This document shows positions 7,912 to 51,789 of a DNA stretch of 56,865 nucleotides, one piece after another; position 1 is the first letter of the stretch; the number at the start of each line of letters is the position of its first letter. The notes beneath the pieces are model-generated. The model did not search any database and was not told the DNA's origin. It saw nothing but the letters and a program-made list of their open reading frames with translations. The translations under genes were made by a program, and so were the position numbers. The DNA is from a virus. The stretch covers positions 1 through 56,865 of the IMG/VR virus record IMGVR_UViG_3300023489_000004; one strand, 5' to 3'.

Positions 7912-9426
7912 TTGGCTACTATTTACGGCAACACAACCAATCACTGGCGTTGCTATATTAACACTTGGTCCTCCGAGGATGATGCGTCTGTATCAGCAGG
8001 ACTGACTGTCGGTATTCAGGATTGCGGTTGGGGTTTTCAAATCTGGACTGGTATTGTCGGACATGCTAGCGCTAACGGTAGTGACTCCGAGGTTAATACA
8101 GCCTTCAGCACCCCGACCGGCTCTTGGAATACGAAGGATATTACTTCTGCTTCTCAGAGATTTGTTAAGAAGCATAACGCTTACGATGTTACTCTATCAG
8201 GATGGGTGCGAAACCAGTCCGGTTACATGAACGGCACAAGTTCTGCAAGCCAGACAATCACTATCCCAGCAGTTGCACATCATTACGTCAGCTTCGATGC
8301 AAATGGCGGAACTGGAGGCCCTAGCAAGGTTGACAAGTGGTATGGAGAAGATCTTAGTATACCGTCTCAGAAACCGACACGTGCTAATTATGAGTTTCTT
8401 GGTTGGAGCAAAACCTCTACTGGTACAGCTGTGTATCAACCAGGTCAGACCTACTACGGTACTCCTGATGCTGACTATACTCTATATGCAGTATGGAAAC
8501 TTCTATACATCCTGCCTAAGTTTACCAATGGTCTGGCTATCCGTACCAACTCAATGACGTCTACGACTCCAGATTACTCAGGCGGTTACTGCTATGCCAG
8601 CTTTGCTTACAAGGTAGACACGACTATCTATCCGAGCAATGTTGCAAAATCTATCGTGTGCAGATACTATCAAAATGGAAGTACTACCGGTGTAGTAGTG
8701 ACTCCTACTGGAGATCTTAATAAGGCGTCTGGTACGATTAATGTCCATTTTGCAGCGTCAATCAACTCGGCATATTACATTGAGTGTACTTTGACAGATA
8801 CTAAGGACGGAACAGCAACCATCGCTCGATCCATTACGACAGGAGTTCTACCTATGGAAGTTGCAAACAGAGGAAAGTCGGTCGGCATTCTAAGTGCTGC
8901 TCCGAAAACTGCTGGGTTACAGCTCGGTGGTTCTGGCAATCCAGATTTTCTTATCGCTGCCGATACGACAAATAACCAACAGGAGTCGATGGCTCAGATT
9001 CACGGTAGTACGTCTTCAACCGGTCAAGGTGAGTTGACTCTAAGTACGCAGGGCACAGATTCGAGAGGCAATGTCGCACGGGGGAGTATTAATCTCGTAG
9101 CGGATAGTGTAAAACTTAATGGAAGTCCGATCATTTTAAACAATTTAAAAATTGTTTCCGGCACAAGAGTACTTAATGCGCCAGGAGGAAACTCATTTGA
9201 GTTTATGTCGCTAGATTACATAAAATCGAAGTTTGGGATTGAATATTCTGTAGATAGAACAATTCTTCTCGTAAATAATGGTGATAGCGACGCCAATAGT
9301 GTACACATTGAAGGCGTTTCTTATGTAAACTCGCATAAAAGTTTATGGTGTGTTACGGATAGAAGCATGTCTGGTCTGGTACGAGTAAATTTCATTATGT
9401 TCCATAATCTTGAAACTCCAGTATAA
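7912..9426 (+). CDS. Tail protein with Listeria-Bacteroides repeat (receptor-binding candidate)
   Basis: TTG start 5 nt after AGGAGG. The segment VSFDANGGTGG...YEFLGWSKTSTGTAVYQPGQTY...YTLYAVW matches the Listeria-Bacteroides (Flg_new) repeat pattern. Confidence 0.6.
   Translation: MATIYGNTTNHWRCYINTWSSEDDASVSAGLTVGIQDCGWGFQIWTGIVGHASANGSDSEVNTAFSTPTGSWNTKDITSASQRFVKKHNAYDVTLSGWVRNQSGYMNGTSSASQTITIPAVAHHYVSFDANGGTGGPSKVDKWYGEDLSIPSQKPTRANYEFLGWSKTSTGTAVYQPGQTYYGTPDADYTLYAVWKLLYILPKFTNGLAIRTNSMTSTTPDYSGGYCYASFAYKVDTTIYPSNVAKSIVCRYYQNGSTTGVVVTPTGDLNKASGTINVHFAASINSAYYIECTLTDTKDGTATIARSITTGVLPMEVANRGKSVGILSAAPKTAGLQLGGSGNPDFLIAADTTNNQQESMAQIHGSTSSTGQGELTLSTQGTDSRGNVARGSINLVADSVKLNGSPIILNNLKIVSGTRVLNAPGGNSFEFMSLDYIKSKFGIEYSVDRTILLVNNGDSDANSVHIEGVSYVNSHKSLWCVTDRSMSGLVRVNFIMFHNLETPV
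8669..8683 (+). promoter_or_regulatory. Late-region motif copy (ATCAAAATGGAAGTA)
   Basis: 15-nt identity with the copy at 51775. Confidence 0.35.
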
Positions 9427-10029: not shown

Positions 10030-10044
10030 ATCAAAATGGGAGTA
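10030..10044 (+). promoter_or_regulatory. Late-region motif copy (ATCAAAATGGGAGTA), intergenic, immediately upstream of the endolysin gene
   Basis: Follows the upstream stop codon directly. GG lies 9 nt before the ATG, the same geometry as the copy at 50413. Confidence 0.4.
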
Positions 10045-10048
10045 AATC

Positions 10049-10774
10049 ATGCTTCACGGTATTGATATCGCGTCATATCAGTCCGGTCTGAACCTTACTA
10101 CGGTCAAAGGCCAGATTGATTTCGTCGTGATTAAAGGTACTGAGGGTACGAATTACGTAAATCCCTACTGCGATCCACACTTCCAACAGGCGAAGCAAGC
10201 AGGCATCCTCAGAGGCGTATACCATTACGCTAAGGCTGGTAACGCTACCGCAGAGGCAAACTACTTCTGCGATAACTGTATCGGCTACAAGGGGGATGCC
10301 ATCCCGGTTCTTGACTGGGAAGAGAAGCAATCAGTCGCCTGGGTTAACGAGTGGGTCAAAGTCGTCCGTAGCCGCTGGGGGGTCTCCCCGATCATCTATG
10401 CAAATCCTTGGCGATTCAATCAAGGTGGCGTGGATAAGGAATGCGGACGATGGGTCGCTTCGTATCCAGCAGTATCTCACCCAACTTTCAAAATGGCCGA
10501 ATCGTGGGATTGTCCTGATGTAGACGGACTTGTTTGCATGTGGCAATTCTGCTCTGACGGTCGACTAAACGGCTATAATGGCAATCTTGATGCTGATCTC
10601 TTTTATGGAGACGCAAACGCCTGGGATGCCTATGCTGGAGTAAAGCCTGCTCAGACTCCCCAGCAACCTACAGCCAAACCTGAGCAACCATCGAACCAAG
10701 ATTCTTCGGACGATACAATTATCATCTCGAAGGGCGACGGTTCAAATCCTACTAAGTACAAGAAAATTTCTTAG
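10049..10774 (+). CDS. Endolysin, glycoside hydrolase family 25 muramidase
   Basis: HGIDIASYQ...DFVVIKGTEGTNYVNP...GVYHYA is a classical GH25 N-terminal signature. The C-terminus is Pro/Gln-rich with no recognisable wall-binding domain. Confidence 0.85.
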   Translation: MLHGIDIASYQSGLNLTTVKGQIDFVVIKGTEGTNYVNPYCDPHFQQAKQAGILRGVYHYAKAGNATAEANYFCDNCIGYKGDAIPVLDWEEKQSVAWVNEWVKVVRSRWGVSPIIYANPWRFNQGGVDKECGRWVASYPAVSHPTFKMAESWDCPDVDGLVCMWQFCSDGRLNGYNGNLDADLFYGDANAWDAYAGVKPAQTPQQPTAKPEQPSNQDSSDDTIIISKGDGSNPTKYKKIS

Positions 10775-11581: not shown

Positions 11582-11953
11582 ATGCCGTTTGACAAAACAG
11601 CAAGCATCTTGGATACAGTTAAGAAGACTTGTGGTCTGGGTTCAGACTACGATGCATTCGATCAGGATATTCTGGTTTTTCTAAACGCTGCCATCCTTGA
11701 TCTCACTCAAAATGGGATTGGTCCGTCTGATGGGTTTACGGTTACTGATTCCTCTCAGACATTTGAGGACTTCATCGGAGGGTTTAAGAACGTAGGAGCC
11801 GTGGCAACATATTTGTCACAGAAGACTCGTATTACATTCGACCCTCCGACTTCTTCATACGTTCTTGAGGCAATCAATAAAAATCTTGCTGAGCTCATTT
11901 GGCGACTAAATCTCGAAGCTGAAAATACGAGTAATTCTGACGTTACCTCGTAA
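11582..11953 (+). CDS. Hypothetical protein (weak resemblance to gp6-like head-tail connector)
   Basis: AAAGGA lies 8 nt upstream of ATG 11582 (alternative ATG at 11573). The functional resemblance is only a subjective pattern match. Confidence 0.4.
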   Translation: MPFDKTASILDTVKKTCGLGSDYDAFDQDILVFLNAAILDLTQNGIGPSDGFTVTDSSQTFEDFIGGFKNVGAVATYLSQKTRITFDPPTSSYVLEAINKNLAELIWRLNLEAENTSNSDVTS

Positions 11954-37838: not shown

Positions 37839-38367
37839 GGGTAAACATGCTTTTCTTAGTGCAAGTCAGCACGCTTGGGTTAACTATGATGAAGGCAAGT
37901 TGATTCGAGTATATTCTAATTTGCTGGCTGCAGCTCGAGGAACTAAACTTCATGAGTTTGCTTGTGAAGCTATTAAGTTGGGAGTTCGACTTCCAGATAA
38001 TAAGCAAACTATTAACATGTATGTTAACGATGCTATTGGTTATAAGATGACTCCCGAGTTGGTTCTTAAGTATTCCAATAATGCTTTTGGAACGGCTGAT
38101 GCTCTTTCTTTCAAGAAGGATCTTTTAAGGATTCATGATTTGAAAACTGGTAGATCAAAAGTTTCTATGGTTCAGTTGGAGATCTATGCGGCTCTATTCT
38201 GTCTAGAGTATGACGTAAAGCCAAATGATATTCAGATGGAGTTGCGGATTTATCAATCAAATGAAGTTCTGGTACACAATCCAGATCCTGATGATATTTT
38301 CCACATCGAAGACAAGATTATTTTGTTCGATCAGCGCATTGAAGAACTCAAGCAAGAGGAGGAATAA
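37810..38367 (+). CDS. PD-(D/E)XK (Cas4/RecB-like) exonuclease family protein
   Basis: HAFLSASQHAW N-terminus, GTADAL and IHDLKTG, QLEIYA. Confidence 0.5.
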   Translation: MNFNKHYDLEGKHAFLSASQHAWVNYDEGKLIRVYSNLLAAARGTKLHEFACEAIKLGVRLPDNKQTINMYVNDAIGYKMTPELVLKYSNNAFGTADALSFKKDLLRIHDLKTGRSKVSMVQLEIYAALFCLEYDVKPNDIQMELRIYQSNEVLVHNPDPDDIFHIEDKIILFDQRIEELKQEEE

Positions 38368-41066
38368 TGAACGATGACGAATTAATGCATTATGGTACTC
38401 CTCGACATTCTGGTCGATATCCTTGGGGTAGTGGCGAGAATCCATATCAATCATCCACTGGTCTTTATGGGATGGCCAAACAGCTAAAAAGCCAAGGCAT
38501 GTCTGATAAAGAAATTGCTGAGTCATTCGGCATGAGTACTCGAGAGTATAAATCAGCATATTCTAATGCAAAGAATGAAGTTCGTGCAGCAAATCGTGCT
38601 GAGGCTCTTAGGCTAAAGGATAAGGGATATTCTAACACCGCTATTGGTAAACGAATGGGCGTTAACGAATCTACTGTTCGCAGCTGGATGGATGAGGATA
38701 TTGCTGAGCGATCAAGTATTTCTAAAAACACAGCAAAAGCTTTAAAGAGCGCTGTAGATGATAAGAAATATATTGACATTGGCGGTGGCGTTGAGAATCA
38801 AATGGGTATTTCTCGTACCGCTCTCGATAATGCCGTTAAGATGCTGAAAGATGAGGGTTATACCGTTCATTATATTCAGACAGAACAACTTGGAACTGGT
38901 CATAAGACCTCCATCAAGGTTCTAGCTCCTCCCGATACTACATATTCTGAAGTATGGAACCATAAAGCCGATATTGAGTTTCCTGGATTTCATTCTGAAG
39001 ATAAAGGCCGAACCATTGATAAAATCGGAAAGCCTGTTAGTATTTCCTCTAAACGCATAAAAATTAATTATGCTGAAGAAGGAGGAAAAGACAAAGATGG
39101 TGTTATCGAACTTCGTCGAGGCGTAGATGATATTTCTTTGGGTAAAGCCAAGTATGCTCAGGTTCGAATCGCTGTAGATGGTACCCATTATTTAAAGGGC
39201 ATGGCAATGTATCGTGATGATATGCCAGATGGTGTTGACATTATATTTAACACTAACAAGGCAAAAGGTACTCCCATGCTTGGCGAAAAGGATAATTCAG
39301 TCCTAAAGCCTATGAAGAAAGATCAGGATAATCCTTTCGGAGCAACTATCAAAGGTGAACGAGAGCTTATTCTTGCTCAGCGATATTATACCGACAAGAA
39401 CGGAAAGCGTCAGCAATCGGCAATTAATATTGTAAACGAGGAAGGCGATTGGAATACCTGGCGAAAGAGCTTATCTTCGCAGATGTTATCTAAGCAAAGT
39501 CCTATGCTGGCTAAGAAGCAATTAAAACTCGCTTATGATCTTAAGCAGGATGAGTTTGATAGTATTATGAAACTCGAGAATCCTGTTATTCGCCAGCAAC
39601 TTCTTGATAAATTCGCAGATGGATGCGATTCGGCATCAGTTCATCTCAAGGCCGCTGGTCTTCCTCGTCAAGCATCAAAGGTTATTCTTCCATTTCCTTC
39701 GATGAAAGAAAACGAAGTTTATGCTCCATCATTTCGTGATGGTGAAGAAGTCGTATTAATTCGATATCCTCATGGCGGAACGTTTGAGATCCCTCGCCTT
39801 AAGGTAAACAACAAAGTTCCAGACGCTAAGAAGACACTTCATAATGCTCAAGATGCAATTGGTATTAACGCCAAAGTGGCTGAGCGATTATCTGGAGCAG
39901 ACTTTGATGGCGATACTGTTCTTGTTATTCCTACAAGCACTGCTAAAATTAAAACTTCTAAGCCTTTGGATGGGTTAAAAGACTTCGACCCTCAACGAGA
40001 CTATAAAGCATATCCTGGTATGCCTGAAGTAAAGGGTTCTGGTTTTAATAAACAGCAACAGATGGGCAATGTTTCAAATCTTATTACAGACATGACCATC
40101 AAAGGTGCTACGCCTGATGAATTGGCTCGTGCTGTTCGCCATTCTATGGTTATTATCGATGCTGAGAAACATAATCTTAATTATAAACAATCGGCTATTG
40201 ATAACAATATTGCTGAGTTGAAAAAGAAATATCAAGGCGGAAGCAATCGCGGAGCTTCTACGATTATTTCTAGAGCCAGTGCTACAGCATATGTTCCGGT
40301 TCGTAAGGAAATAACGAACACGAAATATATGACTGACGATGAGAAGAAGCGATATTCTAAAGGCGAAAAGATATATCGCGAAACTGGTGAAACTTATATT
40401 TCTAAGAAGACTGGAAAAGAAGTCAAACGTATTTCTAAATCCACAAAAATGGCCGAGACTTCTGATGCGAATACTTTATCTTCAGGATATTTAATCGAGA
40501 CCGTATATTCTGAACATGCCAATAAATTAAAGGCCCTAGCAAATAAAGCTCGAGCCGAATCTAGGTCTACTGATTATATTCCATATTCAAAAGAAGCGCA
40601 TGTAAAATATAAAGATCAAGTAGACTCTTTGAATTCTAAGCTAAATATAGCATTGAAGAATAGGCCCCTTGAGCGTAAGGCCCAGCTTATAGCTAATGCT
40701 AAGGTTAAGAATGTATATGCGGCCAATCCAGACATGGATTCGGATGATCTAAAGAAGCTTAAAGGTAGGTGCTTAACAGAGGCCCGCTTACAGACGGGTG
40801 CTTCTAAGCAACAGATTAAGATAGAGCCTAAAGAATGGGAAGCTATTCAGGCTGGTGCTATCTCTACCAATAAGCTTAAGTCTATTGTACAGAACTCAGA
40901 CCTTGATGTACTAAAGCAGTTAGCTATGCCTCGTGAGATGCGTGGTGTAACACCAGCACAAGAGTCAAGGATCAAGGTTCTTGAGAGTCGTGGATACACT
41001 CTTGCTGAGATAGCTGATGCTGTTGGTGTGTCTACTGGTACTATTACCAATGTACTGCAAGGATAG
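38367..41066 (+). CDS. Single-subunit two-barrel RNA polymerase (YonO/RdRP-like) with terminal HTH modules
   Basis: Beta-like barrel motif GTHYLKGMAMYRDDMPDGVDIIFN (aa 272-295). Beta'-like barrel VVLIRYPHGGTFEI...AERLSGADFDGDTVLVIP (aa 462-522). HTH-like segments at aa 44-65, 86-108 and 875-899. Confidence 0.75.
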   Translation: MNDDELMHYGTPRHSGRYPWGSGENPYQSSTGLYGMAKQLKSQGMSDKEIAESFGMSTREYKSAYSNAKNEVRAANRAEALRLKDKGYSNTAIGKRMGVNESTVRSWMDEDIAERSSISKNTAKALKSAVDDKKYIDIGGGVENQMGISRTALDNAVKMLKDEGYTVHYIQTEQLGTGHKTSIKVLAPPDTTYSEVWNHKADIEFPGFHSEDKGRTIDKIGKPVSISSKRIKINYAEEGGKDKDGVIELRRGVDDISLGKAKYAQVRIAVDGTHYLKGMAMYRDDMPDGVDIIFNTNKAKGTPMLGEKDNSVLKPMKKDQDNPFGATIKGERELILAQRYYTDKNGKRQQSAINIVNEEGDWNTWRKSLSSQMLSKQSPMLAKKQLKLAYDLKQDEFDSIMKLENPVIRQQLLDKFADGCDSASVHLKAAGLPRQASKVILPFPSMKENEVYAPSFRDGEEVVLIRYPHGGTFEIPRLKVNNKVPDAKKTLHNAQDAIGINAKVAERLSGADFDGDTVLVIPTSTAKIKTSKPLDGLKDFDPQRDYKAYPGMPEVKGSGFNKQQQMGNVSNLITDMTIKGATPDELARAVRHSMVIIDAEKHNLNYKQSAIDNNIAELKKKYQGGSNRGASTIISRASATAYVPVRKEITNTKYMTDDEKKRYSKGEKIYRETGETYISKKTGKEVKRISKSTKMAETSDANTLSSGYLIETVYSEHANKLKALANKARAESRSTDYIPYSKEAHVKYKDQVDSLNSKLNIALKNRPLERKAQLIANAKVKNVYAANPDMDSDDLKKLKGRCLTEARLQTGASKQQIKIEPKEWEAIQAGAISTNKLKSIVQNSDLDVLKQLAMPREMRGVTPAQESRIKVLESRGYTLAEIADAVGVSTGTITNVLQG

Positions 41067-41340: not shown

Positions 41341-41378
41341 GGGGAGGGAGGGGTCTCTCGCGAAACTACCCCCTCCCC
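41341..41378 (+). other. GC-rich hairpin with TCGCGA in the loop
   Basis: GGGGAGGGAGGGG pairs with CCCCCTCCCC; the loop is TCTCTCGCGAAACTA. Followed by a polypyrimidine tract. Confidence 0.5.
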
Positions 41379-41442
41379 ACATCGCCGGCCTCTTTCTCTC
41401 TTCTCCAGCGGGATTTTTTCTGAAAACTATCGGAGGTTATTC

Positions 41443-41967: not shown

Positions 41968-42054
41968 GCCGGAATGGCGGAATTGGCATACGCAGGAGAC
42001 TTAAAATCTCTCGTCATATTTGACTTGTGGGTTCGAATCCCACTTCCGGCACCA
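41968..42054 (+). tRNA. tRNA-Leu (anticodon UAA), type II with long variable arm, CCA encoded
   Basis: Acceptor GCCGGAA/TTCCGGC. Anticodon stem GGAGA/TCTCT with loop CTTAAAA. Variable-arm stem GTCA/TGAC. T-arm GTGGG-TTCGAAT-CCCAC. Confidence 0.85.
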
Positions 42055-42073: not shown

Positions 42074-42646
42074 ATGCTACTTGAAGATACAGCAATCAAG
42101 TTTAAGTCCCAGTACAAGAATTTGATTGTTCCTTTTAACGAGAATCAACTTCAGCCTTGTAGTTATGACTTGACTCTCGATAAAGATCTACTAACGTTCG
42201 AGTTTGCATCGAATTCGTGTCCGCCCGATGCATTTATTACGGCTTATGACAAGCAAGTTCATGGTATCGATTACCAATCGATCGATCTTTCTACTCTCAA
42301 AGATGAGATCTATGTTCTTCAGCCGAATCAGTTTATCATTGCTTCAACGCAAGAGACGGTAAACATGCCGGATGACATTGCTGGCCGCTTCGAGGGAAAG
42401 TCTTCTCTCGGTCGTCTTGGACTCACCACCCATGTTACGGCAGGTTTCATTGACGCTGGTTTCTCAGGTCAGATCACACTCGAAATGAAGAACGAGAATC
42501 GCTTTCCCATTTGGATTAAGCGAGGAATGAAGATTGGGCAAATCTGCTTCTTCAAAATGAATGGTCGAGCAAGGCATCCGTATGGATCCGAAGGTCTCGG
42601 CTCACATTACAACAATCAAAATGGACCAACTCCCGCAAGGTCTTAA
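42074..42646 (+). CDS. dcd: dCTP deaminase (dUTPase superfamily)
   Basis: QPCSYDLTL...GRFEGKSSLGRLGLTTHVTAGFIDAGFSGQITLEMKN. Confidence 0.8.
   Translation: MLLEDTAIKFKSQYKNLIVPFNENQLQPCSYDLTLDKDLLTFEFASNSCPPDAFITAYDKQVHGIDYQSIDLSTLKDEIYVLQPNQFIIASTQETVNMPDDIAGRFEGKSSLGRLGLTTHVTAGFIDAGFSGQITLEMKNENRFPIWIKRGMKIGQICFFKMNGRARHPYGSEGLGSHYNNQNGPTPARS
42615..42629 (+). promoter_or_regulatory. Late-region motif copy (ATCAAAATGGACCAA)
   Basis: Exact 10-mer core in the 3' end of dcd, 186-195 nt upstream of the putative small terminase gene (start GTG 42801 or 42810). Confidence 0.3.
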
Positions 42647-42653
42647 TTATTTC

Positions 42654-42778
42654 TAAGCTTACTCACAGAGGGCCTCTGGTCTTTCATAACTAAACAGGGA
42701 TGTGGTGACCCCTGGCTCCTTTCAAGAGGGTACTGAAAAGTATCTGGAAACTCTAGAGGTTCTCCATGAGTAAGCTTA
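42654..42778 (+). other. 125-nt segment closed by a perfect 12-bp inverted repeat, upstream of the small terminase (cos/packaging region or structured RNA candidate)
   Basis: TAAGCTTACTCA (42654-42665) pairs with TGAGTAAGCTTA (42767-42778); internal helices include CAGGG/CCCTG. Confidence 0.4.
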
Positions 42779-42809
42779 TGATTAACTAAGAAAGTATGAG
42801 GTGAGTTAC

Positions 42810-43133
42810 GTGGCAAAGAGTAAAAGGCAAGTAAAACCAGCCTTGACCCCTGAAGAGCAAGAGAATCGTTTAATTGCCGAAGCTACCAATTTGGCAGAAC
42901 GTAAGATTCTTGACGGCACGGCGTCTCCTCAGATCGTGGTTCATTATTTAAAGCTTGGAACCGCCAAAGCAAAGCTTGAGAATGAGAAACTTCAGGAAGA
43001 GAATCGACTTCTCAAAGCTAAGACAGCTAACCTTGAATCTCAGAAGCGTTCTGAGGAGTTCTATCAGAAGGTTCTTGAAGCGATGCGTGATTATTCTGGC
43101 GCTGATGATGGAGAGATAATCGATGAGTATTAG
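42810..43133 (+). CDS. Putative terminase small subunit
   Basis: Position upstream of HNH and TerL; coiled-coil C-terminus. GTG 6 nt after GAGGTG (the track starts at 42801). Confidence 0.45.
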   Translation: MAKSKRQVKPALTPEEQENRLIAEATNLAERKILDGTASPQIVVHYLKLGTAKAKLENEKLQEENRLLKAKTANLESQKRSEEFYQKVLEAMRDYSGADDGEIIDEY

Positions 43134-43536
43134 AACTTACTCGGAACTTATCGAGATTCCATCCTTTAAAGAACGCTACGAGTATCTAAGACTCGATGGC
43201 AAAGTTGGAGAGGATACTTTTGGTTGAAGTCGATACTTAAACCAAGCACTGTATACCTCGGATGAATGGAAACGAATACGACGTCAGGTAATACTTCGTG
43301 ATAACGGATGCGATTTGGCTGTAGCTGGTTTTGAAATTCAAAATAGGCTTTTGATTCATCACATCAATCCGATAACCGCTGAAGACATAGAAACTGGTTC
43401 TCCACTAATCTTCGATTTAAACAATCTTATTTGTTGTTCACTTAATACTCACGAAGCCATTCATTATGGGAATGTAAATCTACTTCCGTCCGATCCAGTT
43501 ATACGCAGACCGAATGATACTTGTTTATGGAGGTGA
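43123..43536 (+). CDS. Terminase-associated HNH endonuclease, interrupted by in-frame TGA (43225-43227)
   Basis: MSIRTYSELIEIPSFKERYEYLRLDGKVGEDTFG, then the stop, then SRYLNQALYTSDEWKRIRRQVILRDNGCDLAVAGFEI..LLIHHINPIT...H in one frame. The track sees only 43315..43536. Confidence 0.6.
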
Positions 43537-43542
43537 TTCTGT

Positions 43543-45288
43543 ATGAGTCTTTCTAATTCAGCTACTCCAATTTATTACGGCAAATTTCGTGACGCTGTAA
43601 TTCGAGGAGAGATTCCTGTTTGTCGAGAGATCTCTATGCAGATGAACCGAATCGACAACATGATCCGAGATCCTGGTTTGTATTATGATGACAAAGCCAT
43701 TAATGGTTTCGTACATTTTTGCGAGAATGAGCTAACTCTTACCGACGGTAGTGATCTTAAGTTACTAGACACTTTTAAACTTTGGGCAGAAGATGCACTC
43801 AGTTGGTTTTATTTCGTAGATCGAACTGTTTATCAACCTAGTCCTGATAACCATGGCGGGGTTTATGTAAAGAAGCGAATAAAGAAGCGTCTTGTTAACA
43901 AGCAGTATTTGATCGTTTCTCGTGGTTCGGCCAAGTCAATGTATGCAGCTTGTATGCAAGCGTATTATCTGACAGTTGATACTTCAACTACTCAGCAGAT
44001 AGTAATGGCTCCAATCCTTACTCAGACTGAAGAGACACTTAGTCCTATTCGAACAGCTATCACTCGAGCTAAAGGTCCATTATTTCAGTTTCTAACTGAT
44101 GGTAATCTAGCTAATACCGCTGGAAGTTTGGCAGATCGCAAGAAACTCTCATCTACCAAGAAGGGTATTGAGAATTTCTTAACGAACTCGATCATTGAAG
44201 CTCGAGCCATGGGAATTGACAAAGTACAAGGAGCTAAGCCAAAATTCTCATCAGTTGACGAATGGCTTTCATGCGACATTCGAGAAGACGTCATCGGTGC
44301 TTTGGAACAGGGTGCTACTAAGAATGACGATTACTTGATTCTTGCCATCTCTTCTGAGGGTACAGTTCGTAACGGTGCCGGCGATACAATCAAAATGGAA
44401 TTAATGGACATACTCAAAGGCGAGTATGTGAACCCGCATGTGTCCATTTGGTATTATAAACTTGACAGTATTGAAGAAGTTGCTGATCCTTCTATGTGGA
44501 TGAAGGCGGCTCCTAATATTGGTAAGACTGTTTCTTATGAGACTTATCAGCTTGCTGTTGAGCGTGCTGAGAAGGCTCCCTCTACTCGAAACGATATTCT
44601 TGCTAAGCGTTTCGGCATTCCCATGGAAGGCTACACATATTTCTTCACTTACGAAGAGACTCTACCTCATAAGCCACGAAATTTCTGGCAGATGCAATGT
44701 TCTATGGGAGCGGATCTTTCTCAGGGCGATGACTTCTGTGCGTTTACATTCCTATTCCCTCTTCCTCGAGAAAAATACGGAATTAAGACTCGGTGCTACA
44801 TTTCTTCCGACACAATGGCGAAACTTACTCCTGCAACAAGGATCAAGTACGAAGACTTCTTACGAGAAGGTTCTTTGATGGTACTCGATTGTGTTGCTCT
44901 GGATATGAATGAAGTTTACAATGATCTAGATCAGTATATTGCTGATAACGAATACGATGTTACCTCTTTCGGTTACGATCCGTATAACGCAAAGGAATTT
45001 GTCAACCGATGGGCTACCGAGAACGGTCCGTTTGGTATCGAGAAAGTAATTCAAGGTGTTAAGACGGAGTCGGTTCCTCTTGGCGAGTTGAAGAAACTTG
45101 CTGAGAATCGAGCTTTGCTATTCGATGAATCTTTGATGGAATTCTGTATGGGTAACGCAATTGCTTTGGAGGATACTAACGGTAATCGCAAGCTGTATAA
45201 GAAGCGCCATCAAGATAAGATCGACTCGGTAGCAGCAATGCTTGACGCCTATGTAGCATTTAAGCTTAATCGAGATTCTTTTGAATAG
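43543..45288 (+). CDS. Terminase large subunit
   Basis: Terminase_1-like organisation, 581 aa; position before the portal gene. Confidence 0.85.
   Translation: MSLSNSATPIYYGKFRDAVIRGEIPVCREISMQMNRIDNMIRDPGLYYDDKAINGFVHFCENELTLTDGSDLKLLDTFKLWAEDALSWFYFVDRTVYQPSPDNHGGVYVKKRIKKRLVNKQYLIVSRGSAKSMYAACMQAYYLTVDTSTTQQIVMAPILTQTEETLSPIRTAITRAKGPLFQFLTDGNLANTAGSLADRKKLSSTKKGIENFLTNSIIEARAMGIDKVQGAKPKFSSVDEWLSCDIREDVIGALEQGATKNDDYLILAISSEGTVRNGAGDTIKMELMDILKGEYVNPHVSIWYYKLDSIEEVADPSMWMKAAPNIGKTVSYETYQLAVERAEKAPSTRNDILAKRFGIPMEGYTYFFTYEETLPHKPRNFWQMQCSMGADLSQGDDFCAFTFLFPLPREKYGIKTRCYISSDTMAKLTPATRIKYEDFLREGSLMVLDCVALDMNEVYNDLDQYIADNEYDVTSFGYDPYNAKEFVNRWATENGPFGIEKVIQGVKTESVPLGELKKLAENRALLFDESLMEFCMGNAIALEDTNGNRKLYKKRHQDKIDSVAAMLDAYVAFKLNRDSFE
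44389..44403 (+). promoter_or_regulatory. Late-region motif copy (ATCAAAATGGAATTA)
   Basis: Exact 10-mer core inside TerL. Confidence 0.3.
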
Positions 45289-45305
45289 GGAGGGGGTAAC
45301 GGTGA

Positions 45306-46421
45306 ATGTACGAATATCCAGACTACCTTATGCGCTACGGTGTCCTAGGAATGAAATGGGGCGTACGTAGATATCAAAATAAAGATGGTGCATATACGCC
45401 AAAGGGTCATAGACGATATTTTAATGGTTCAAATAAAGTAAAAACTTCTCATAAAGATAAATTAATTGCCAAGTATAAAGAAAAAGGGTATAGCAATAAA
45501 GCAGCGGAATTAGCTGCTCAAAAGCGGATTCGTAATGAACGAATAATGATTGCTGCTGGAGCGATAACTTTAACGGCAGCAGTTGCTTACTTGGCTACTA
45601 GAGATAATTTTGATCGTGCTGATCGAATTATTAAAGAAGGAGCCAAATTAGGCCGAATCGAAAATAACGATTCAGGAAAGCTATATGACGGTTTTTACGC
45701 GTTTAATAATAAGCGTGACGCTGTTCGATATAAAGGCTTTTATGGAAATCAAGTAGCCTCTACTGGGGCAAAAACATATCTTATGGATCTTACGACTACT
45801 GGTAGTATTAAAATTCCATCACGTGATAACGCTAAAAAGGCCCTTAGTGAATTGATTAAAGAAGATCCGACATATGCTCGTAATTTGAAGAGTATGTTAA
45901 ATTCGAATTTCGGAGTTGATCATAGAGATAGACTCGCTCGTAAAGCACTTAGGGATCTTTCAAAAGGAAAAGTTACAGATGCAGTCTATGATGCAGTTAA
46001 TACTGATTTAACTTTTAAGGGCGATATTCCGAATTATCAAAAAACGAAATATTATGAGAAATTAGCCTCCAAGGGATATAACGCTATTAGGGATATTCAT
46101 GATGTCAAGTATAGCGGATACAAATCTCAAGATCCGTTAATTGTCTTTGATAAATCAAAGGTTATGGTGAATAAAATATCCCAGATGTCCGCTTCTGAAC
46201 TAATTTCGAATAATTACGAAGCGATCGGTCAGAACGCATTAGAATATACGCGAGATTACACTTTGAAGGCTTTAATAGCCGGAGGAGCTGCAACTACTGG
46301 ACTTACTGCCGGAGCACAATCAGTAAAAACAGTAGGTGAGAAGAATTTCTTACGATCTTATAAGAAAGCTCATCCAGAAACAAAGAAGACCGATTATCAA
46401 ATTTTGAAAATGTATAAGTGA
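45306..46421 (+). CDS. Head-module protein with N-terminal YLMxYGxxGMKWGxR motif (371 aa, TM segments)
   Basis: N-terminus MYEYPDYLMRYGVLGMKWGVRRYQNKDG; hydrophobic IMIAAGAITLTAAVAYLA. Confidence 0.6.
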   Translation: MYEYPDYLMRYGVLGMKWGVRRYQNKDGAYTPKGHRRYFNGSNKVKTSHKDKLIAKYKEKGYSNKAAELAAQKRIRNERIMIAAGAITLTAAVAYLATRDNFDRADRIIKEGAKLGRIENNDSGKLYDGFYAFNNKRDAVRYKGFYGNQVASTGAKTYLMDLTTTGSIKIPSRDNAKKALSELIKEDPTYARNLKSMLNSNFGVDHRDRLARKALRDLSKGKVTDAVYDAVNTDLTFKGDIPNYQKTKYYEKLASKGYNAIRDIHDVKYSGYKSQDPLIVFDKSKVMVNKISQMSASELISNNYEAIGQNALEYTRDYTLKALIAGGAATTGLTAGAQSVKTVGEKNFLRSYKKAHPETKKTDYQILKMYK

Positions 46422-46430
46422 GGTGATTTG

Positions 46431-46820
46431 ATGGATCAATATTCAAACTATCTTATGCATTACGGCATTCCTGGAATGAAATGGGGAGTTCGTAAAAAAC
46501 GAAATTCTGTTGGAAAGAAAACAACGAGACGAAAGAAACGTCAAGATTCGTATTCCAAGGATTACTTGGATTCAAAGGCTTTGCGGTCTAAGAGCTATAA
46601 GCAATTGTCAACTTCCGAAATGAAAGAGTTAAACAAACGACTAGAAGCGGAATCACAATATCGTAGATTAAACCCAAAGGGGTTTGATAAAGGTATGGCA
46701 ATAGCGAAAAAAGCCATTGCTATTGGTGGAACCGCTGCTGGCGTATACGCATTAAGCAAAAACCCTTGGGTTCCCGTTGGCGAGGACTTGATAAAACATG
46801 TTGGAAGGTATTTGGTGTAA
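46431..46820 (+). CDS. Head-module protein with the same N-terminal motif (129 aa)
   Basis: MDQYSNYLMHYGIPGMKWGVRKKRN. Confidence 0.6.
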   Translation: MDQYSNYLMHYGIPGMKWGVRKKRNSVGKKTTRRKKRQDSYSKDYLDSKALRSKSYKQLSTSEMKELNKRLEAESQYRRLNPKGFDKGMAIAKKAIAIGGTAAGVYALSKNPWVPVGEDLIKHVGRYLV

Positions 46821-46821
46821 C

Positions 46822-47220
46822 ATGAATTATAAAGATGATTATTTAGCTCACTATGAAGTTCTCGGTATGAAATGGGGACAACGTCGAGTTCGAGTTAATC
46901 AAGAAAAAGCTAGACGAGCTAAGGCGTTGGGTAACAAAGAAGCGTACTCCAAGTATTCTGCCAAGGCTAATCGAATAAAGCAGAAGCACATTCGATTGTC
47001 TGGAGGTAAGAAGGCCTACGATTATACCAAAAATGAGAGTCTTGGCAAGTCGTTGGTTAAGTCTGTTTTGCTTACTACGTATGGTACCATGAAGTATAAC
47101 GAGTTTCGATCTAACGGTGAAAGTCAAATGAAATCCGGAGTTAAAGCCGTAGCGTATGGATTCGCTAACAATTTAACTAGCGGCATCGTGTCGATTGCCG
47201 AACCTAGGCTTCGAAAATAG
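46822..47220 (+). CDS. Head-module protein with the same N-terminal motif (132 aa)
   Basis: MNYKDDYLAHYEVLGMKWGQRRVR. Confidence 0.6.
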   Translation: MNYKDDYLAHYEVLGMKWGQRRVRVNQEKARRAKALGNKEAYSKYSAKANRIKQKHIRLSGGKKAYDYTKNESLGKSLVKSVLLTTYGTMKYNEFRSNGESQMKSGVKAVAYGFANNLTSGIVSIAEPRLRK

Positions 47221-47232
47221 ATCGGTGATTCT

Positions 47233-48507
47233 ATGGCTGAATCTTTTAGGACCAGACTTCAACATGCCTGGAATGCTTTTAGTAATCAAGAGACTACTGA
47301 CTATAGGTATTCTACGTCTGTTGGGTCTTCTTATGGTTATCGGCCGGATCGTGTTGGGATATCTATCGGATCAGAACGTACAATCATTAACGCCATTTAC
47401 AATCGAATAGCCGTTGATGTTGCAGCTACAACTTTTATGCATGTTCGTGTAGATGAGAATAAGCGTTATGAAGAAGAGATTAATTCTGGTTTAAACTATT
47501 GCCTTAACGAAGAGGCGAATATTGATCAGACAGCAACAGCCTTTATGGCCGATATTGCTTATTCTCTTCTAGAAGAAGGATGTATCGCAATCGTCCCGAT
47601 TGATACGACATTGGATCCGTTTGTTACAGGGTCCTATGATATCAATTCTATGCGACGAGGAAAAATTGTTGGTTGGCATCCGAAGCATGTTGATCTTGAA
47701 GTTTATAACGATAATTCAGGAATCAAACAGCAAATTACAATGCCTAAATCATCGGTAGCTATTATCGAAAATCCGTTTTATGCTGTTATGAATGAGCCCA
47801 ATTCTACTTTGAAGCGACTCGTTTATAAGCTTAAACTTCTTGATGATGCGGATGCAAAAGCTAACTCGTCGAAGCTCGATGCTATTGTTCAGTTACCATA
47901 TACGATTCGTAACGAATCTCAAAAGAAGCGCGCTGAAGAGCGTAAGCGCTCTCTTGAAGATCAGCTTGAGAATTCCAAGTATGGTGTCGCATATATTGAC
48001 GCTACGGAAAAGTTTACTCAACTTAATCGTTCTGTTGAGAATACTCTTCCTGAGCAGATTAAGACACTTACTGATCAGTTATATTCTCAGTTGAGTCTTG
48101 ACGTCACAGTGCTTAATGGTACCGCTACCGATTCTACGATGAACAATTATTATCAGCGAACAGTAGCACCAGTTGTTAAGGCAATTCGTGATGCTATGAA
48201 TTGTAAATTCTTGACAAAGACTGCTCGAACTCAGAATCAGCAGATTATGACGTTCCAAGATCCGTTCAAGTATATGACTGTGACACAGATTTCTCAGATG
48301 GTTGATTCTTTGAGTCGTAACGAGGTTCTTACTGGTAACGAGTTCCGCACAGCTCTTGGATTTAAGCCTTCCGAAGAGCCTAGTGCTGACGAGCTTCGTA
48401 ACAAGAATCTTATTGATCCAAATGCTGATTACAGTTCTTCATCAGATGAAGATTATTATCCCGATGACGTATCCGACGTCGAAAATCAAAATGGAAGTTA
48501 TCAGTAA
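47233..48507 (+). CDS. Portal protein
   Basis: 424 aa, between the terminase and the capsid/protease gene; acidic C-terminus. Confidence 0.7.
   Translation: MAESFRTRLQHAWNAFSNQETTDYRYSTSVGSSYGYRPDRVGISIGSERTIINAIYNRIAVDVAATTFMHVRVDENKRYEEEINSGLNYCLNEEANIDQTATAFMADIAYSLLEEGCIAIVPIDTTLDPFVTGSYDINSMRRGKIVGWHPKHVDLEVYNDNSGIKQQITMPKSSVAIIENPFYAVMNEPNSTLKRLVYKLKLLDDADAKANSSKLDAIVQLPYTIRNESQKKRAEERKRSLEDQLENSKYGVAYIDATEKFTQLNRSVENTLPEQIKTLTDQLYSQLSLDVTVLNGTATDSTMNNYYQRTVAPVVKAIRDAMNCKFLTKTARTQNQQIMTFQDPFKYMTVTQISQMVDSLSRNEVLTGNEFRTALGFKPSEEPSADELRNKNLIDPNADYSSSSDEDYYPDDVSDVENQNGSYQ
48485..48499 (+). promoter_or_regulatory. Late-region motif copy (ATCAAAATGGAAGTT)
   Basis: Lies in the last codons of the portal gene, 96 nt upstream of the capsid gene start. 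Confidence 0.4.
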
Positions 48508-48580
48508 AGATATAGTACTTGCTTGATAATTCTATTTATATGTATTGTAAACAAAATTACAAATGTAAAGGAGGAACCGC

Positions 48581-50407
48581 ATGAAGTACGATTTTTCAGG
48601 TTATGCAACACGCAACAACATTAAGTGTTCTGACGGTCGCGTTATTATGCGCGATGCGTTTAAGGATAATGACCATAAGAAGGTACCTCTTGTTTGGCAG
48701 CATGATCATATGTCTCCGGATAATGTGCTAGGTCACGCTATGCTCGAGAATCGAGAAGATGGCGTTTATGCTTATGGTTGTTTTAATGATACTCCATCTG
48801 GTTTAAACGCTAAAGAGCTGGTTAAGAACGGAGACGTTCGAGCGCTTTCCATTTACGCGAACAAGCTTAAGCAGGATGGCGCTAACGTTATTCATGGAGC
48901 AATTCGCGAAGTAAGTTTGGTTCTTGCTGGAGCAAATCCTGGAGCATATATCGATACCGTTATGGTTCATTCAGATGGCGATGAGGAAACGGAAGACGCC
49001 GAGATTTGCTTTAATCTTAATAGCAATCCTGTAATTTATCATTCTGATGAGGCCGACGACGGTGACGATTCGAATGATAAGTCAGACGATAGCATCGCTC
49101 ATGCTGATAAAGTTGATGAAAAAGGAAAAGACATGGCCAATAATAATACCGGATCCGATGGTAAGACTGTTCAGGATGTCATTGATTCCATGACTGACGA
49201 GCAGAAGAATGTATTGTATACTCTTGTCGGTATGGCTGCCGACGGTTCTTTAGATGAAAGTGGGGCTGATATGAAGCATAATGCTTTTGAGGATGAGGAT
49301 GACACCATGGCTCATTCTATTGATTTTGATGAGATTCTTCGAGACGCAAAGCGTTGCGGTTCTTTGCGTGACTCTGTGATGCAGCATGGTCTTGAGGATG
49401 TTAGCTATACTGATTATCTTGAGCATGGTAAGGCGACCTACGGCATCGATCAGATTGATACCTTGTTCCCCGATTTTAAGAGCCTTAACACTCCTCCTGC
49501 CTTTGTTTCCCGCAATATGGACTGGGTTGCCGGCGTTATGAACAGTGTTTCGCATACGCCGTTCTCCCGAATCAAGTCTGTGTTTGCTAACATTACTGCT
49601 GACGAGGCGCGTGCTCGAGGCTATACTAAGGGTAAGAAGAAGCTTGAGGAAGTCTTTACTCTTCTTAAGCGTACCACTACCCCTCAGACCATTTATAAGA
49701 AGCAGAAGTTTGATCGAGACGACGTTCTCGATATTACCGAGTTCGATGTCGTTGCCTGGGTTAAGGGCGAGATGCGAATGATGCTTGATGAGGAAATTGC
49801 TCGTGCTATTCTTGTTGGCGATGGTCGATCCGATTCCTCCGATGATCGCATCTTCCCGACTAACATTCGACCGGTTTGGCAGGATGATACTTTCTATACC
49901 ATCCGTGCTCAGGTTGACACCAAGGGTATGACCACCGAGGAAGCTAAGACCGAGGCTGTTATCAAGGCTATCATTCGTGCTCGTAAGAATTATAAGGGTT
50001 CTGGCAACCCGGTGTTCTATACCACCGAGGATGTTCTTACCGACATGCTTCTCCTTGAGAATCAGATCGGCGATGTTAAGTATAAGACGAAGCAGGAGCT
50101 GGCTAACCGTCTGCGCGTTTCTGACATCGTGACTGTCGAGGTCATGGAGGGTCTGACCCGCAAGGGCGATGCTAGCAAGGGCGACGCGGCTGATTCCGCT
50201 ACCAAGGATCTGAACCTTGTTGGTCTTATTGTCAACCTCAAGGATTACAATGTTGGTGCCGATAAGGGTGGTGCCGTGTCCATGTTTGATGACTTCGACA
50301 TTGACTACAACCAGCAGAAGTATCTGATCGAGACCCGTTGCTCTGGCGCTCTGATTAAGCCTTATGCCGCTATCTCGGTCGAGACGTTCGATTCTACCGC
50401 TGCGTAG
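48581..50407 (+). CDS. Prohead serine protease (HK97/S78-like) fused to the major capsid protein
   Basis: N-terminal KVPLVWQHD...GHA...VRALSIYAN...IREVSLVLAGANPGAYID resembles the S78 protease. An acidic linker is followed by an HK97-fold-like capsid domain. Confidence 0.7.
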   Translation: MKYDFSGYATRNNIKCSDGRVIMRDAFKDNDHKKVPLVWQHDHMSPDNVLGHAMLENREDGVYAYGCFNDTPSGLNAKELVKNGDVRALSIYANKLKQDGANVIHGAIREVSLVLAGANPGAYIDTVMVHSDGDEETEDAEICFNLNSNPVIYHSDEADDGDDSNDKSDDSIAHADKVDEKGKDMANNNTGSDGKTVQDVIDSMTDEQKNVLYTLVGMAADGSLDESGADMKHNAFEDEDDTMAHSIDFDEILRDAKRCGSLRDSVMQHGLEDVSYTDYLEHGKATYGIDQIDTLFPDFKSLNTPPAFVSRNMDWVAGVMNSVSHTPFSRIKSVFANITADEARARGYTKGKKKLEEVFTLLKRTTTPQTIYKKQKFDRDDVLDITEFDVVAWVKGEMRMMLDEEIARAILVGDGRSDSSDDRIFPTNIRPVWQDDTFYTIRAQVDTKGMTTEEAKTEAVIKAIIRARKNYKGSGNPVFYTTEDVLTDMLLLENQIGDVKYKTKQELANRLRVSDIVTVEVMEGLTRKGDASKGDAADSATKDLNLVGLIVNLKDYNVGADKGGAVSMFDDFDIDYNQQKYLIETRCSGALIKPYAAISVETFDSTAA

Positions 50408-50412
50408 AATTA

Positions 50413-50427
50413 ATCAAAATGGGAGTA
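50413..50427 (+). promoter_or_regulatory. Late-region motif copy (ATCAAAATGGGAGTA), intergenic
   Basis: 17-nt identity with the copy at 10030; GG lies 9 nt before the ATG. Confidence 0.4.
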
Positions 50428-50431
50428 ACGA

Positions 50432-50746
50432 ATGACAAAGTATTATGGCGCTATTGGGTTCGCCTCTAGTGTGGAGAGTTCTCCTGACGTTTGGACTGAA
50501 GAGATTACCGAACGTAACTATTACGGAGACGTGATTCGCAATATTCGTCGTCTTGACGGAACCGAGTTCATTAACGACAAGGTAGTTGTTAATAACTCGA
50601 TTAGTATTGTTGCAGATGCTTATGCTAATGAGAATTTCTTTGCCATTCGATATGCTTCTTGGATGGGGAGCAACTGGAAAGTAACATCTGTTGAGGTCCA
50701 GCCTCCCCGTCTTATTTTGACTCTTGGCGGTGTTTACAATGAGTAA
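50432..50746 (+). CDS. Head-tail adaptor / head closure protein (putative)
   Basis: Position after the capsid gene; resembles the SPP1 gp16-like pattern (..FAIRYASWMGSNWKVTSVE). Confidence 0.5.
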   Translation: MTKYYGAIGFASSVESSPDVWTEEITERNYYGDVIRNIRRLDGTEFINDKVVVNNSISIVADAYANENFFAIRYASWMGSNWKVTSVEVQPPRLILTLGGVYNE

Positions 50747-51053
50747 TAATCGAGACGGACTGAGCAAAATCTTACACGAGATTCTCGGTTCCGATTATGT
50801 ATATTTCGATCCGCCAGAGTCTCAACGAATTCATTATCCGTGCATTATCTATCAGCGATCTAGTGGAGATACAGATTTTGCTAATAACGTTGGATACCGT
50901 TTCACAAAGCGTTATCAGCTAACTGTTATCTCTAAAGATCCAGACGTTAGTTCGAGGATAATGGATAAACTTGCAAAATTGCCTATGTGTACGTATGATC
51001 GTCATTACACGTCAGACAATTTGCATCATGACATTTTTAATCTTTATTATTAA
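50739..51053 (+). CDS. Tail completion / terminator-like protein (putative)
   Basis: ATGA-type overlap; position before the major tail gene. Confidence 0.45.
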   Translation: MSNNRDGLSKILHEILGSDYVYFDPPESQRIHYPCIIYQRSSGDTDFANNVGYRFTKRYQLTVISKDPDVSSRIMDKLAKLPMCTYDRHYTSDNLHHDIFNLYY

Positions 51054-51064
51054 GGAGGAAACAC

Positions 51065-51775
51065 ATGGCTTCTAAGACCCTTACTTGGGATGACGATGGT
51101 AAGCGTTTCTATGAGAATGGCACTGATCGAGGCGTTCTGTATCCTAAGAGCGCTTCCGGTTATGCCGCTGGCGTAGCTTGGAACGGTTTGACGGCTGTCA
51201 CCGAGTCTCCTGATGGCGCAGAGCCTACGGATCTTTACGCCGATAATGGTAAGTATGCTGTTATGCGTTCTGCCGAGACTCTTGGTTTTACGATTGAGGC
51301 TTATACCTATCCTGATGAGTTTGCTGCCTGTGATGGTAGTCGCCAGGTCGCTAAGGGTGCTTACATTGGTCAGCAGACTCGTAGTTCTTTCGGTTTCTGC
51401 TATCGTACTCGTATTGGCAATGATGTCGATTCTGAAGTTGCTTATCGACTCCACATCTATTATGGTTGCACTGCTTCTCCTTCTGAGAAGGCTTACGAGA
51501 CGGTTAATGATTCTCCGGATGCTATGACTCTTTCTTGGGAGTGCACGACCACTCCTGTGTCCATTGCTGGCTTTAAGCCTACCGCTAGCATTATGGTTGA
51601 TTCTCGTTATGCTGACAAGGATAAGCTTGTGGCTCTCGAGAAGCTCCTTTACGGTTCTGAGACTGCAGACGCAGCTCTTCCTGATCCTCAGACCATTATC
51701 ACTACACTCGGTGCGGCTGAGGCAGTATCACTTTCCGATATGTCTACTGAGAATACCGAGAAGTCTGTAATTTAA
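51065..51775 (+). CDS. Major tail protein
   Basis: 236 aa, strong RBS AAGGAGGA; position upstream of the chaperone and tape measure genes. Confidence 0.7.
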   Translation: MASKTLTWDDDGKRFYENGTDRGVLYPKSASGYAAGVAWNGLTAVTESPDGAEPTDLYADNGKYAVMRSAETLGFTIEAYTYPDEFAACDGSRQVAKGAYIGQQTRSSFGFCYRTRIGNDVDSEVAYRLHIYYGCTASPSEKAYETVNDSPDAMTLSWECTTTPVSIAGFKPTASIMVDSRYADKDKLVALEKLLYGSETADAALPDPQTIITTLGAAEAVSLSDMSTENTEKSVI

Positions 51776-51789
51776 TCAAAATGGAAGTA
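51775..51789 (+). promoter_or_regulatory. Late-region motif copy (ATCAAAATGGAAGTA), intergenic
   Basis: Begins at the last base of the major tail stop codon. Confidence 0.4.

Follow-up and report, generated by a model that had tools for sequence, protein, structure and literature searches.

A short strand-specific word as a candidate promoter core for the late genes of phages encoding a single-chain two-barrel RNA polymerase

What is the function of a short DNA word that is repeated exactly, always on the same strand, through one half of a phage genome, and what molecule reads it? The question is raised by the IMG/VR viral contig IMGVR_UViG_3300023489_000004, analysed here over its whole stretch of 56,865 nucleotides (nt), hereafter the window. 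The ends of the window overlap by 55 bp, which makes it a circular contig whose true length is 56810 bp; the genome is that of a siphovirus-type phage, and nearly all of its genes lie on the + strand. The early/replication arc (~13.5-41 kb) holds small early genes, a 1352-amino-acid (aa) primase-polymerase, a helicase and nucleases, followed near its end by an 899-aa protein. The late arc runs from a dCTP-deaminase-like gene through terS-like, HNH, TerL, portal and protease-capsid fusion genes to the head-tail genes, the tail assembly chaperone, the tape-measure gene (which spans the junction of the contig), tail proteins, a GH25 endolysin and a connector protein. The word at issue is the 9-mer TCAAAATGG, confined to the late arc, and sequence comparison tips modestly towards its being the core of the promoter that the phage's own RNA polymerase, a single-chain two-barrel enzyme with fused helix-turn-helix (HTH) domains, recognizes and from which it initiates.

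The first-pass annotation of the window had listed ten positions of a longer form, the 10-mer ATCAAAATGG, each on the + strand and within the late arc, and an independent count returns exactly these ten (572, 4426, 5786, 8669, 10030, 42615, 44389, 48485, 50413 and 51775), where 100 dinucleotide shuffles of the window give an expectation of 0.18 and a maximum of 2. The longer matches that it reported between copies, 17 nt for 10030 and 50413 and 15 nt for 8669 and 51775, are likewise found. Two further copies had been described as one-mismatch forms at 10487 and 11705; both are in late genes, but the second starts at 11706, and both differ from ATCAAAATGG at the first base only and carry the full TCAAAATGG. 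The core is the 9-mer, and a recount of the minus strand and of the early region, on which the claim of a strand-specific late word turned, gives no copy in either, against 12 on the + strand. All 12 copies fall within a single 25.9-kb arc, spaced 0.5-5.6 kb apart through the packaging, head, tail and lysis genes, and the complementary arc of 30.9 kb is empty; an empty arc at least as long arises in 0.2% of random placements of 12 sites.

It is clear that this distribution is not peculiar to one genome. Two samples of related DNA were compared, the first a late sample of 80 viral contigs related by their capsid protein (51-95% amino-acid identity, 1.10 Mb) and the second an early sample that covers 1.65 Mb in 80 loci around the DNA polymerase. 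Of the capsid-centred loci 80/80 contain TCAAAATGG, with 376 copies on the coding strand in total and 0 on its complement; in the DNA-polymerase-centred loci it occurs 22 times forward and 15 times in reverse, mostly near the edges of the loci, at the beginning of the late genes. Late DNA carries 3.4 copies per 10 kb and early DNA 0.13 per 10 kb, so that the word is ~25-fold rarer in replication-module loci, and the strand specificity and late confinement first described for the window hold family-wide. An unbiased scan of all 8-mers ranked TCAAAATG, positions 1-8 of the word, first for late + strand specificity (479 on the late + strand, 3 on the late minus strand and 16 early, in 80/80 loci); no independent late-specific word came close to it in that scan, the next-ranked being overlapping sub-words of the same motif.

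A search among phages that share the polymerase, suggested in the first-pass annotation, places the word in every relative, on the late sense strand. The Faecalibacterium phage FP_oengus (50% GC) has 17 copies on + and 1 on -, of which 13 are in the late module, and the Streptomyces phage Scap1 (61% GC) has 3, all on + and all late, with fewer than 0.1 expected from base composition by our estimate. Arthrobacter phage Correa, Gordonia phage Kenosha and Bifidobacterium phage BitterVaud1 hold 3, 4 and 5 copies, respectively. Lactococcus phage 1706 has 8 copies of TCAAAATG, all on +, when any base is allowed at position 9, 7 of them in the late module. In 75 kb of SPbeta-like loci, taken as a control, there are 0 copies forward and 2 in reverse. 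The word is thus conserved across host phyla and across GC contents from 34% to 61%, and it recurs at orthologous places. Its restriction to the sense strand of the late module links it with the expression of late genes and not with events that involve the whole chromosome, such as replication, recombination or packaging. Its identity in phages whose hosts transcribe and degrade RNA with quite different machinery means that its reader must be a phage product that is itself conserved. In the temperate FP_oengus (L084), copies at 2441, 3427, 3724 and 6070 adjoin or overlap the starts of small genes just downstream of the integrase and outside the structural module; late expression of these genes is one possible explanation, a broader function of the word in this phage another.

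The sequence of the word is also strict. A position matrix built from 377 unique instances has W at -2, T (93%), then CAAAATGG and then a weak preference for A, without any upstream block resembling a -35 element, so that conservation extends over W-TCAAAATG-G(-a). The flank GGRAGTAA of the first-pass annotation survives in part: a purine does follow GG, but the longer extension is specific to the window lineage and is partly Shine-Dalgarno sequence, doubling as a ribosome-binding site at gene junctions. Against the 376 exact 9-mers of the late + strand, the 24 variants with one substitution at positions 1-8 number 1-25 apiece, no more than their counts in early DNA or on the opposite strand. 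Position 9 alone shows a graded preference (G 376, A 75, C 17, T 11), which holds separately for intragenic sites, start-codon sites and the remainder. Recognition is therefore all-or-none at positions 1-8, the exception being position 9 with G far above A, and all-or-none specificity is what would be expected of a dedicated polymerase. Chance or a codon artefact as the origin of the word is rejected by the shuffles, the variant counts, the 8-mer scan and the codon choice in TerL described below.

Where the word lies relative to genes bears on every explanation of it. In a set of 408 sites from 83 genomes and loci, 29% follow the stop codon of a long open reading frame (ORF) at a distance of 0-20 nt, 13x the random value. 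When 390 unique sites were classified, the ATG of the word proved to be the start codon of a gene of >=70 codons, with a ribosome-binding site 8-10 nt upstream, in 133 (34%), and the genes begun in this way include those for the portal, the protease-capsid fusion, a 'MAKYYGKVGY' head-tail protein and TerL. A further 38/390 (10%) lie 13-78 nt, mostly 13-33 nt, upstream of a start codon, the GG of the word usually opening a GGAG, which is the arrangement of window copies 10031 and 50414; 166/390 (43%) are deep inside long ORFs, and 53/390 (14%) are placed otherwise. The intragenic sites occupy all three frames (72, 54 and 44) and show no bias towards the 3' ends of genes. The statement that five copies precede late units was correct for the window, where they stand before the terS, capsid, head-tail, chaperone and endolysin genes, but it describes the family only in part, in view of the intragenic and start-codon classes. 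Spacing between copies across the family follows gene lengths, so the intervals of 1360, 1361 and 1362 nt separating three adjacent pairs in the window (4426/5786, 8669/10030 and 50413/51775; post hoc P ~2.5e-4) are probably coincidence.

Such frequent overlap with translation-initiation regions, ~44% of sites when the start-codon and ribosome-binding-site classes are combined (133/390 and 38/390), invites the alternative that the word is a tag on late mRNA at these regions (UCAAAAUGG), bound or cut by a phage RNA-binding protein or endoribonuclease that activates, times or processes the messages. Sense-strand specificity suits RNA as well as DNA, and there is a precedent in the Start-Associated Sequences (SAS) of Cluster K mycobacteriophages, an oriented word at starts (PMC3203893). 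This explanation is nonetheless rather unlikely. The 166 sites within long ORFs are far from starts, in three frames, and are still conserved; the two junction arrangements differ by 13-16 nt in their register to the start codon; no candidate RNA-binding factor is known; and a separate late promoter would still be needed, although the 8-mer scan found no other late-specific word. The overlap itself can be explained by economy alone. Because the word includes an ATG and its last two letters are GG, a compact junction, with little other room, can accommodate it at almost no cost, either across the spacer, the start codon and the first base of codon 2 or just ahead of a GGAG, and its coincidence with start codons and ribosome-binding sites need not reflect a function in translation. 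SAS are 13 bp long (GGGATAGGAGCCC), asymmetric, in one orientation, conserved across subclusters and found at translation starts (PMC3203893), and identification of the word as a SAS is rejected, for SAS copies lie immediately upstream of starts with rare exceptions; unlike SAS, the word belongs to late modules and to a lineage that encodes the polymerase. Pairing of the word with an RNA made by the phage is also unlikely, as the complementary word has 0 copies on the + strand of the window and the sole match of an Rfam search of the window is a tRNA-Leu.

Within genes the word is selected at the nucleotide level, at synonymous sites. Two intragenic sites are orthologous between Firmicutes phages and Actinobacteria phages, one in TerL (D-T-I-K-M-E-L) and one in a gene encoding L-E-H-S-L-x-S-L-S-K-W-E. 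The TerL 9-mer falls at the same codons in 51/64 homologues, including those of Streptomyces, Gordonia and Faecalibacterium phages. At this site isoleucine is encoded by ATC in 51/57, compared with 33% elsewhere in the same genes (binomial P 7e-19, uncorrected for phylogeny), and lysine by AAA in 52/57, compared with 53% elsewhere (binomial P 7e-10, likewise uncorrected), and even the 61%-GC Streptomyces phage retains ATC AAA ATG GAA. In long genes, the word would simply have been written into the coding sequence.

The same scatter of copies, within and between genes and in no fixed register along one co-oriented 26-kb unit, could be produced by a signal acting during elongation, through the non-template strand or the nascent RNA, as an ops-like pause or antitermination element that would either reload a factor for processivity or coupling along the late operon or make the polymerase pause where genes begin. 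The exactness of the sequence recalls ops, and pausing at start codons, where the word is frequent, could aid ribosome loading. This possibility is judged improbable: known ops-type elements occur once per operon leader rather than every 1-2 kb, no accessory factor has been identified, the actinobacterial phages manage with 3-5 copies, and the late promoter would be left unaccounted for.

More improbable still is a DNA-level signal apart from gene expression, such as the strand-specific nick sites of T5 and Pseudomonas phage tf, a Chi- or KOPS-like oriented word read by an enzyme of recombination or translocation, or a packaging site, to which very little weight is given. An exact oriented 8-9-mer repeated on one strand would fit, and the window encodes a homologue of the I-HmuI-like HNH nicking endonucleases (41443-41964) together with a second HNH-like ORF that adjoins the terminase genes. 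However, the 13-fold enrichment after stop codons and the coincidence with start codons are predicted by none of these, nick sites included, and the word is conserved throughout the family, which homing HNH genes are not. A genome-wide oriented word of the Chi or KOPS type is rejected, given the ~25-fold depletion in the replication module, which lies on the same strand.

The copies in the window, with the genes around them, are collected in Table 1. Those at 573, 4427, 5787, 10488 and 11707 are kept in every relative that covers them, even at 67-82% local identity. An apparent lack of conservation of the tape-measure copy in tblastn mapping was rejected, since the match was to a paralogous repeat within the gene and blastn shows the copy to be conserved. 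Aligned to copy 8670, 11 relatives have TCAAGACGG, TCAAGATGG or TCAGGACGG, and copy 10031 reads TCAAAATAG in two relatives. The restriction of copy 8670 to the window and one relative indicates that sites can be gained or lost, and the retention of most copies alongside variation at 8670 and 10031 indicates, for the window lineage, purifying selection with occasional gain and loss.

Table 1. Copies of the word, the polymerase gene and the late genes of the window.
Feature	Coordinates	Strand	Remarks
Polymerase gene	38367..41066	+	899-aa single-chain two-barrel RNA polymerase homologue; GADFDGD loop, two HTH domains, weak RdRP (RNA-dependent RNA polymerase) Pfam match
dCTP-deaminase-like gene	42074-42646	+	
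Word copy	42616..42624	+	in last 31 nt of dCTP-deaminase-like gene; 185 nt upstream of terS-like ORF; first copy downstream of polymerase gene; kept in relative L001
terS-like ORF	start 42801	+	
TerL gene	43543-45288	+	
Word copy	44390..44398	+	inside TerL, codons ATC AAA ATG G of motif DTIKMEL
Portal gene	47233-48507	+	
Word copy	48486..48494	+	last 22 nt of portal gene; 95 nt upstream of protease-capsid fusion; kept in L001 and L002
Protease-capsid fusion gene	start 48581	+	
Word copy	50414..50422	+	7 nt past capsid stop; its GG opens GGGAG ribosome-binding site of DUF7253 gene
DUF7253 head-tail protein gene	start 50432	+	
Word copy	51776..51784	+	abuts stop codon of 51065-51775; 27 nt upstream of tail assembly chaperone gene
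Tail assembly chaperone gene	start 51811	+	preceding ORF 51065-51775
Tape-measure gene, C-terminal part	96-2300	+	ORF
Word copy	573..581	+	inside tape-measure gene, frame S-K-W; kept in close relatives, 78-100% local identity
1422-aa tail protein gene	3634-7902	+	
Word copy	4427..4435	+	inside 1422-aa tail protein gene; kept in 12/12 relatives, 79-95% local identity
Word copy	5787..5795	+	second copy inside 1422-aa tail protein gene; kept in 13/13 relatives, one at 67% local identity
Word copy	8670..8678	+	inside gene 7912-9426; specific to window lineage, shared by L194 only
Word copy	10031..10039	+	1 nt past stop of 9448-10029; its GG opens GGGAG ribosome-binding site of GH25 endolysin
GH25 endolysin gene	start 10049	+	preceding ORF 9448-10029
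Word copy	10488..10496	+	inside endolysin gene; kept in 13/13 relatives
Connector-protein gene	11573-11953	+	
Word copy	11707..11715	+	inside connector-protein gene; kept in 12/12 relatives

If the reader is a conserved phage product, the candidate is the 899-aa polymerase homologue, the gene for which is among the last of the early/replication module. A GADFDGD catalytic loop is the signature of two-barrel RNA polymerases, and here it spans residues 510-516, with D512, D514 and D516; an N-terminal HTH lies at about residues 73-108 and a C-terminal one at about 867-898. Homologues with 44-54% identity are found in 250 phage records, from phages of Arthrobacter, Gordonia, Streptomyces, Lactococcus (the 1706 group), Faecalibacterium (FP_oengus), Curtobacterium, Microbacterium, Rhodococcus and Bifidobacterium, and the recognition helix of the N-terminal HTH, NES(S/T)VR, is invariant in five distant homologues. 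A preprint has described the protein, from HHpred and motifs, as a putative YonO-like or RdRP-like polymerase and as a signature gene of an inter-phylum lineage (10.1101/842583). A phmmer search with the polymerase against the PDB gave no match, and a single-sequence AlphaFold model had a pLDDT of 43.9 and was unusable for the fold. One source labels the polymerase a sigma-24 family protein, from its HTH domains. Polymerase and capsid occur in the same isolates, the co-presence of word and polymerase is perfect, and the most divergent polymerases, those of the Lactococcus 1706 group, accompany the relaxed position 9, TCAAAATG+N.

The early module of the window carries signals of another kind. 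Exact TATAAT occurs on the + strand 30 times in early and 3 times in late DNA, the reverse of TCAAAATG with 1 early and 13 late, whereas a scan with a generic sigma-70 consensus finds what is expected in both arcs and, unlike the exact counts, does not discriminate between them. Strong long-stem intrinsic terminators, and modules of TATAAT and TTGAAAGGAG that follow such terminators, occur in the early arc only. Recurrent early expression cassettes, for example those at 24126, 24924, 25460 and 27699, are built of a long-stem terminator, CCTATAATGA, ~15 nt, TTGAAAGGAG and a start codon; those at 24924 and 27699 have >50 identical bases in common, and TTGAAAGGA occurs in 14 copies on the + strand of the window. 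An element of ~35 nt ending in CACACGGTATAATAGAAGGAG is present in four copies (13572, 13687, 13823 and 37477), three of them in tandem at the start of the early module, and these look like strong host-type early promoters. The octamer TATATTCT has 17 copies on + and 2 on -; 15/17 lie within 16830-40504, the others at 3770 and 48080, and 16/17 are inside ORFs. Its family form is TTATATTY; TTATATTT is found 867 times on + and 95 times on - across 80 loci centred on the polymerase, against a scaled count of ~134 in late DNA, with flanks unconserved except for a T just before. Judged by its letters, TTATATTY resembles a -10-only promoter comparable to the T4 late element TATAAATA, and in its own half of the genome it is the counterpart of the late word.

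One plausible sequence of events is that the host RNA polymerase would transcribe the early/replication module from TATAAT-type promoters, that the phage polymerase would accumulate late because its gene is near the end of that module, and that it would then initiate on the + strand at each copy of the word through the late genes. The polymerase would thus be the reader and the word the place of initiation, and the start itself may lie at one of two places within it. Were transcription to begin at the G of ATG, the position used in phiKZ, this would suit the preference for a purine at position 9, and the copies on start codons would serve downstream genes only; were it to begin at or just before the A, the overlapped genes would be expressed from leaderless or near-leaderless mRNAs.

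Parallels with other non-canonical polymerases are instructive. The non-virion RNA polymerase of phiKZ uses a word of 4-5 bp that overlaps the transcription start, (-3)TATG(+1), and is, as in AR9, a phage-encoded two-barrel reader of late genes (PMC7618050), a role for which the window family has a candidate. The promoters of phiKZ and AR9 (consensus -11 to -8) are likewise very short words at or near the start with no -35-like element, and the ATG-G within TCAAAATGG resembles the phiKZ TATG(+1). The differences are that these enzymes are multisubunit with a separate sigma-like subunit, where the window enzyme is one 899-aa chain with fused HTH domains, and that the phiKZ consensus is short and loose, where 8-9 positions of TCAAAATGG are all-or-none. 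YonO, a single-chain two-barrel polymerase with a DxDGD loop, is required for late gene transcription in SPbeta, its gene lies just upstream of the late operon, a placement like that of the window polymerase, and it starts at one mapped site, the promoter sequence of which the paper left undetermined (PMC5467207). It is only distantly related, being absent among the 250 phage records matched by the window polymerase. The forward primer of the SPbeta primer extension was placed in 11 viral contigs but the reverse primer and the start coordinate were not. For crAss gp66, no common upstream motif was found among transcripts.

In copy number and uniformity the word resembles the class III promoters of T7 and the late promoters of T4. 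T7 class III promoters are near-identical, co-oriented late copies, read by an earlier-made phage polymerase, and their transcripts start with GGGAGA, a G-rich likeness to the GGRAG that follows the word in the window. The T7 enzyme is, however, an unrelated right-hand single-subunit polymerase, and its promoters are 23 bp long, intergenic and fast-diverging, where the word has 9 bp, is often intragenic and is unchanged across phyla; the likeness to single-subunit polymerase promoters drawn in the first-pass annotation is superficial, and the short start words of non-canonical two-barrel polymerases are the better analogy. T4 late promoters (TATAAATA) are defined by an 8-bp element alone, present in dozens of copies, some in coding regions, co-oriented with late genes; they are read by the host core polymerase with gp55, gp33 and the sliding clamp, and they resemble a -10 element. 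TCAAAATGG, unlike these, is not -10- or TATA-like, and TTATATTY of the early module is the closer match.

The proposal that the word is a late promoter read by the phage polymerase accordingly stands in part. Strand, module, enrichment at junctions, complementarity with TATAAT and co-inheritance with the polymerase all agree with it, and the many sites inside genes or on start codons limit it. The 166/390 sites (43%) deep in genes, without 3'-end bias, would have to be internal promoters, and in 34% of sites the start codon of the gene to be served lies within the word itself, so that such a copy could serve this gene only if initiation were at or before the A of ATG, when the position 9 preference for G over A suggests instead that the G of ATG is +1. 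The actinobacterial phages, with 3-5 copies, have none at the very start of the late module, and 4/15 genomes lack a copy between the polymerase gene and TerL, so other late promoters or read-through must exist. The co-presence of word and polymerase, moreover, is without a polymerase-less contrast, as every relative carries the enzyme. A variant that takes the start-codon copies at face value, in which the word is a promoter with its start point at the A of the ATG that it contains, or 1-4 nt upstream of that A, so that portal, capsid, head-tail and TerL proteins are made from leaderless mRNAs, is considered doubtful; if true, one 9-mer would set the starts of both transcription and translation, unchanged between phages of Actinobacteria and Firmicutes.

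Single-chain two-barrel RNA polymerases (YonO, crAss-like gp66, and gp64/gp96 of P23-45) are studied as models of the ancestor of cellular RNA polymerase. The word supplies an 8-9-bp candidate recognition word for a third, HTH-fused branch that is widespread, with 250 sequenced isolates and hundreds of metagenomic contigs. Literature searches found no publication on the word, on a promoter of this polymerase family or on the transcriptomics of member phages, and TCAAAATGG is on this evidence a new, sharply defined candidate promoter for an uncharacterised branch of these enzymes, the role of which is directly testable because cultured phages and clonable enzymes are available. Should the promoter assignment be correct, it would provide a minimal orthogonal promoter-polymerase pair usable across Gram-positive phyla and a simple rule for annotating the late modules of the lineage. 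It would also represent a cis-element frozen over a very long evolutionary distance, and a regulatory word inside coding sequence that is paid for in codon choice.

The stretch between the polymerase operon and the late module has several features of its own. After the operon, at 41337-41420, there is a GC-rich hairpin, GGGGAGGGAGGGG...CCCCCTCCCC, with a T-run further downstream, which would be either a terminator or near a physical end of the genome; in sequenced relatives the polymerase gene is at the far right end of a linear genome. The I-HmuI-like gene mentioned above, of the HNH/NUMOD homing-endonuclease type, follows in the same interval and is itself directly followed by the tRNA-Leu (anticodon TAA, 41968-42054). 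Between the first copy of the word and the terS-like ORF, at 42641-42791, there is a 45-nt imperfect inverted repeat, 76% complementary, with arms 61 nt apart, and the region 42615-42815 has a predicted fold of -68.8 kcal/mol (z = -3.9 vs shuffles); the repeat may form a structured leader for terS or mark a site of the cos/pac type. The 38367-41066 protein is encoded at >=99% identity by more than 100 public contigs, many with lengths of 55-60 kb, and the window phage is therefore very common in public data.

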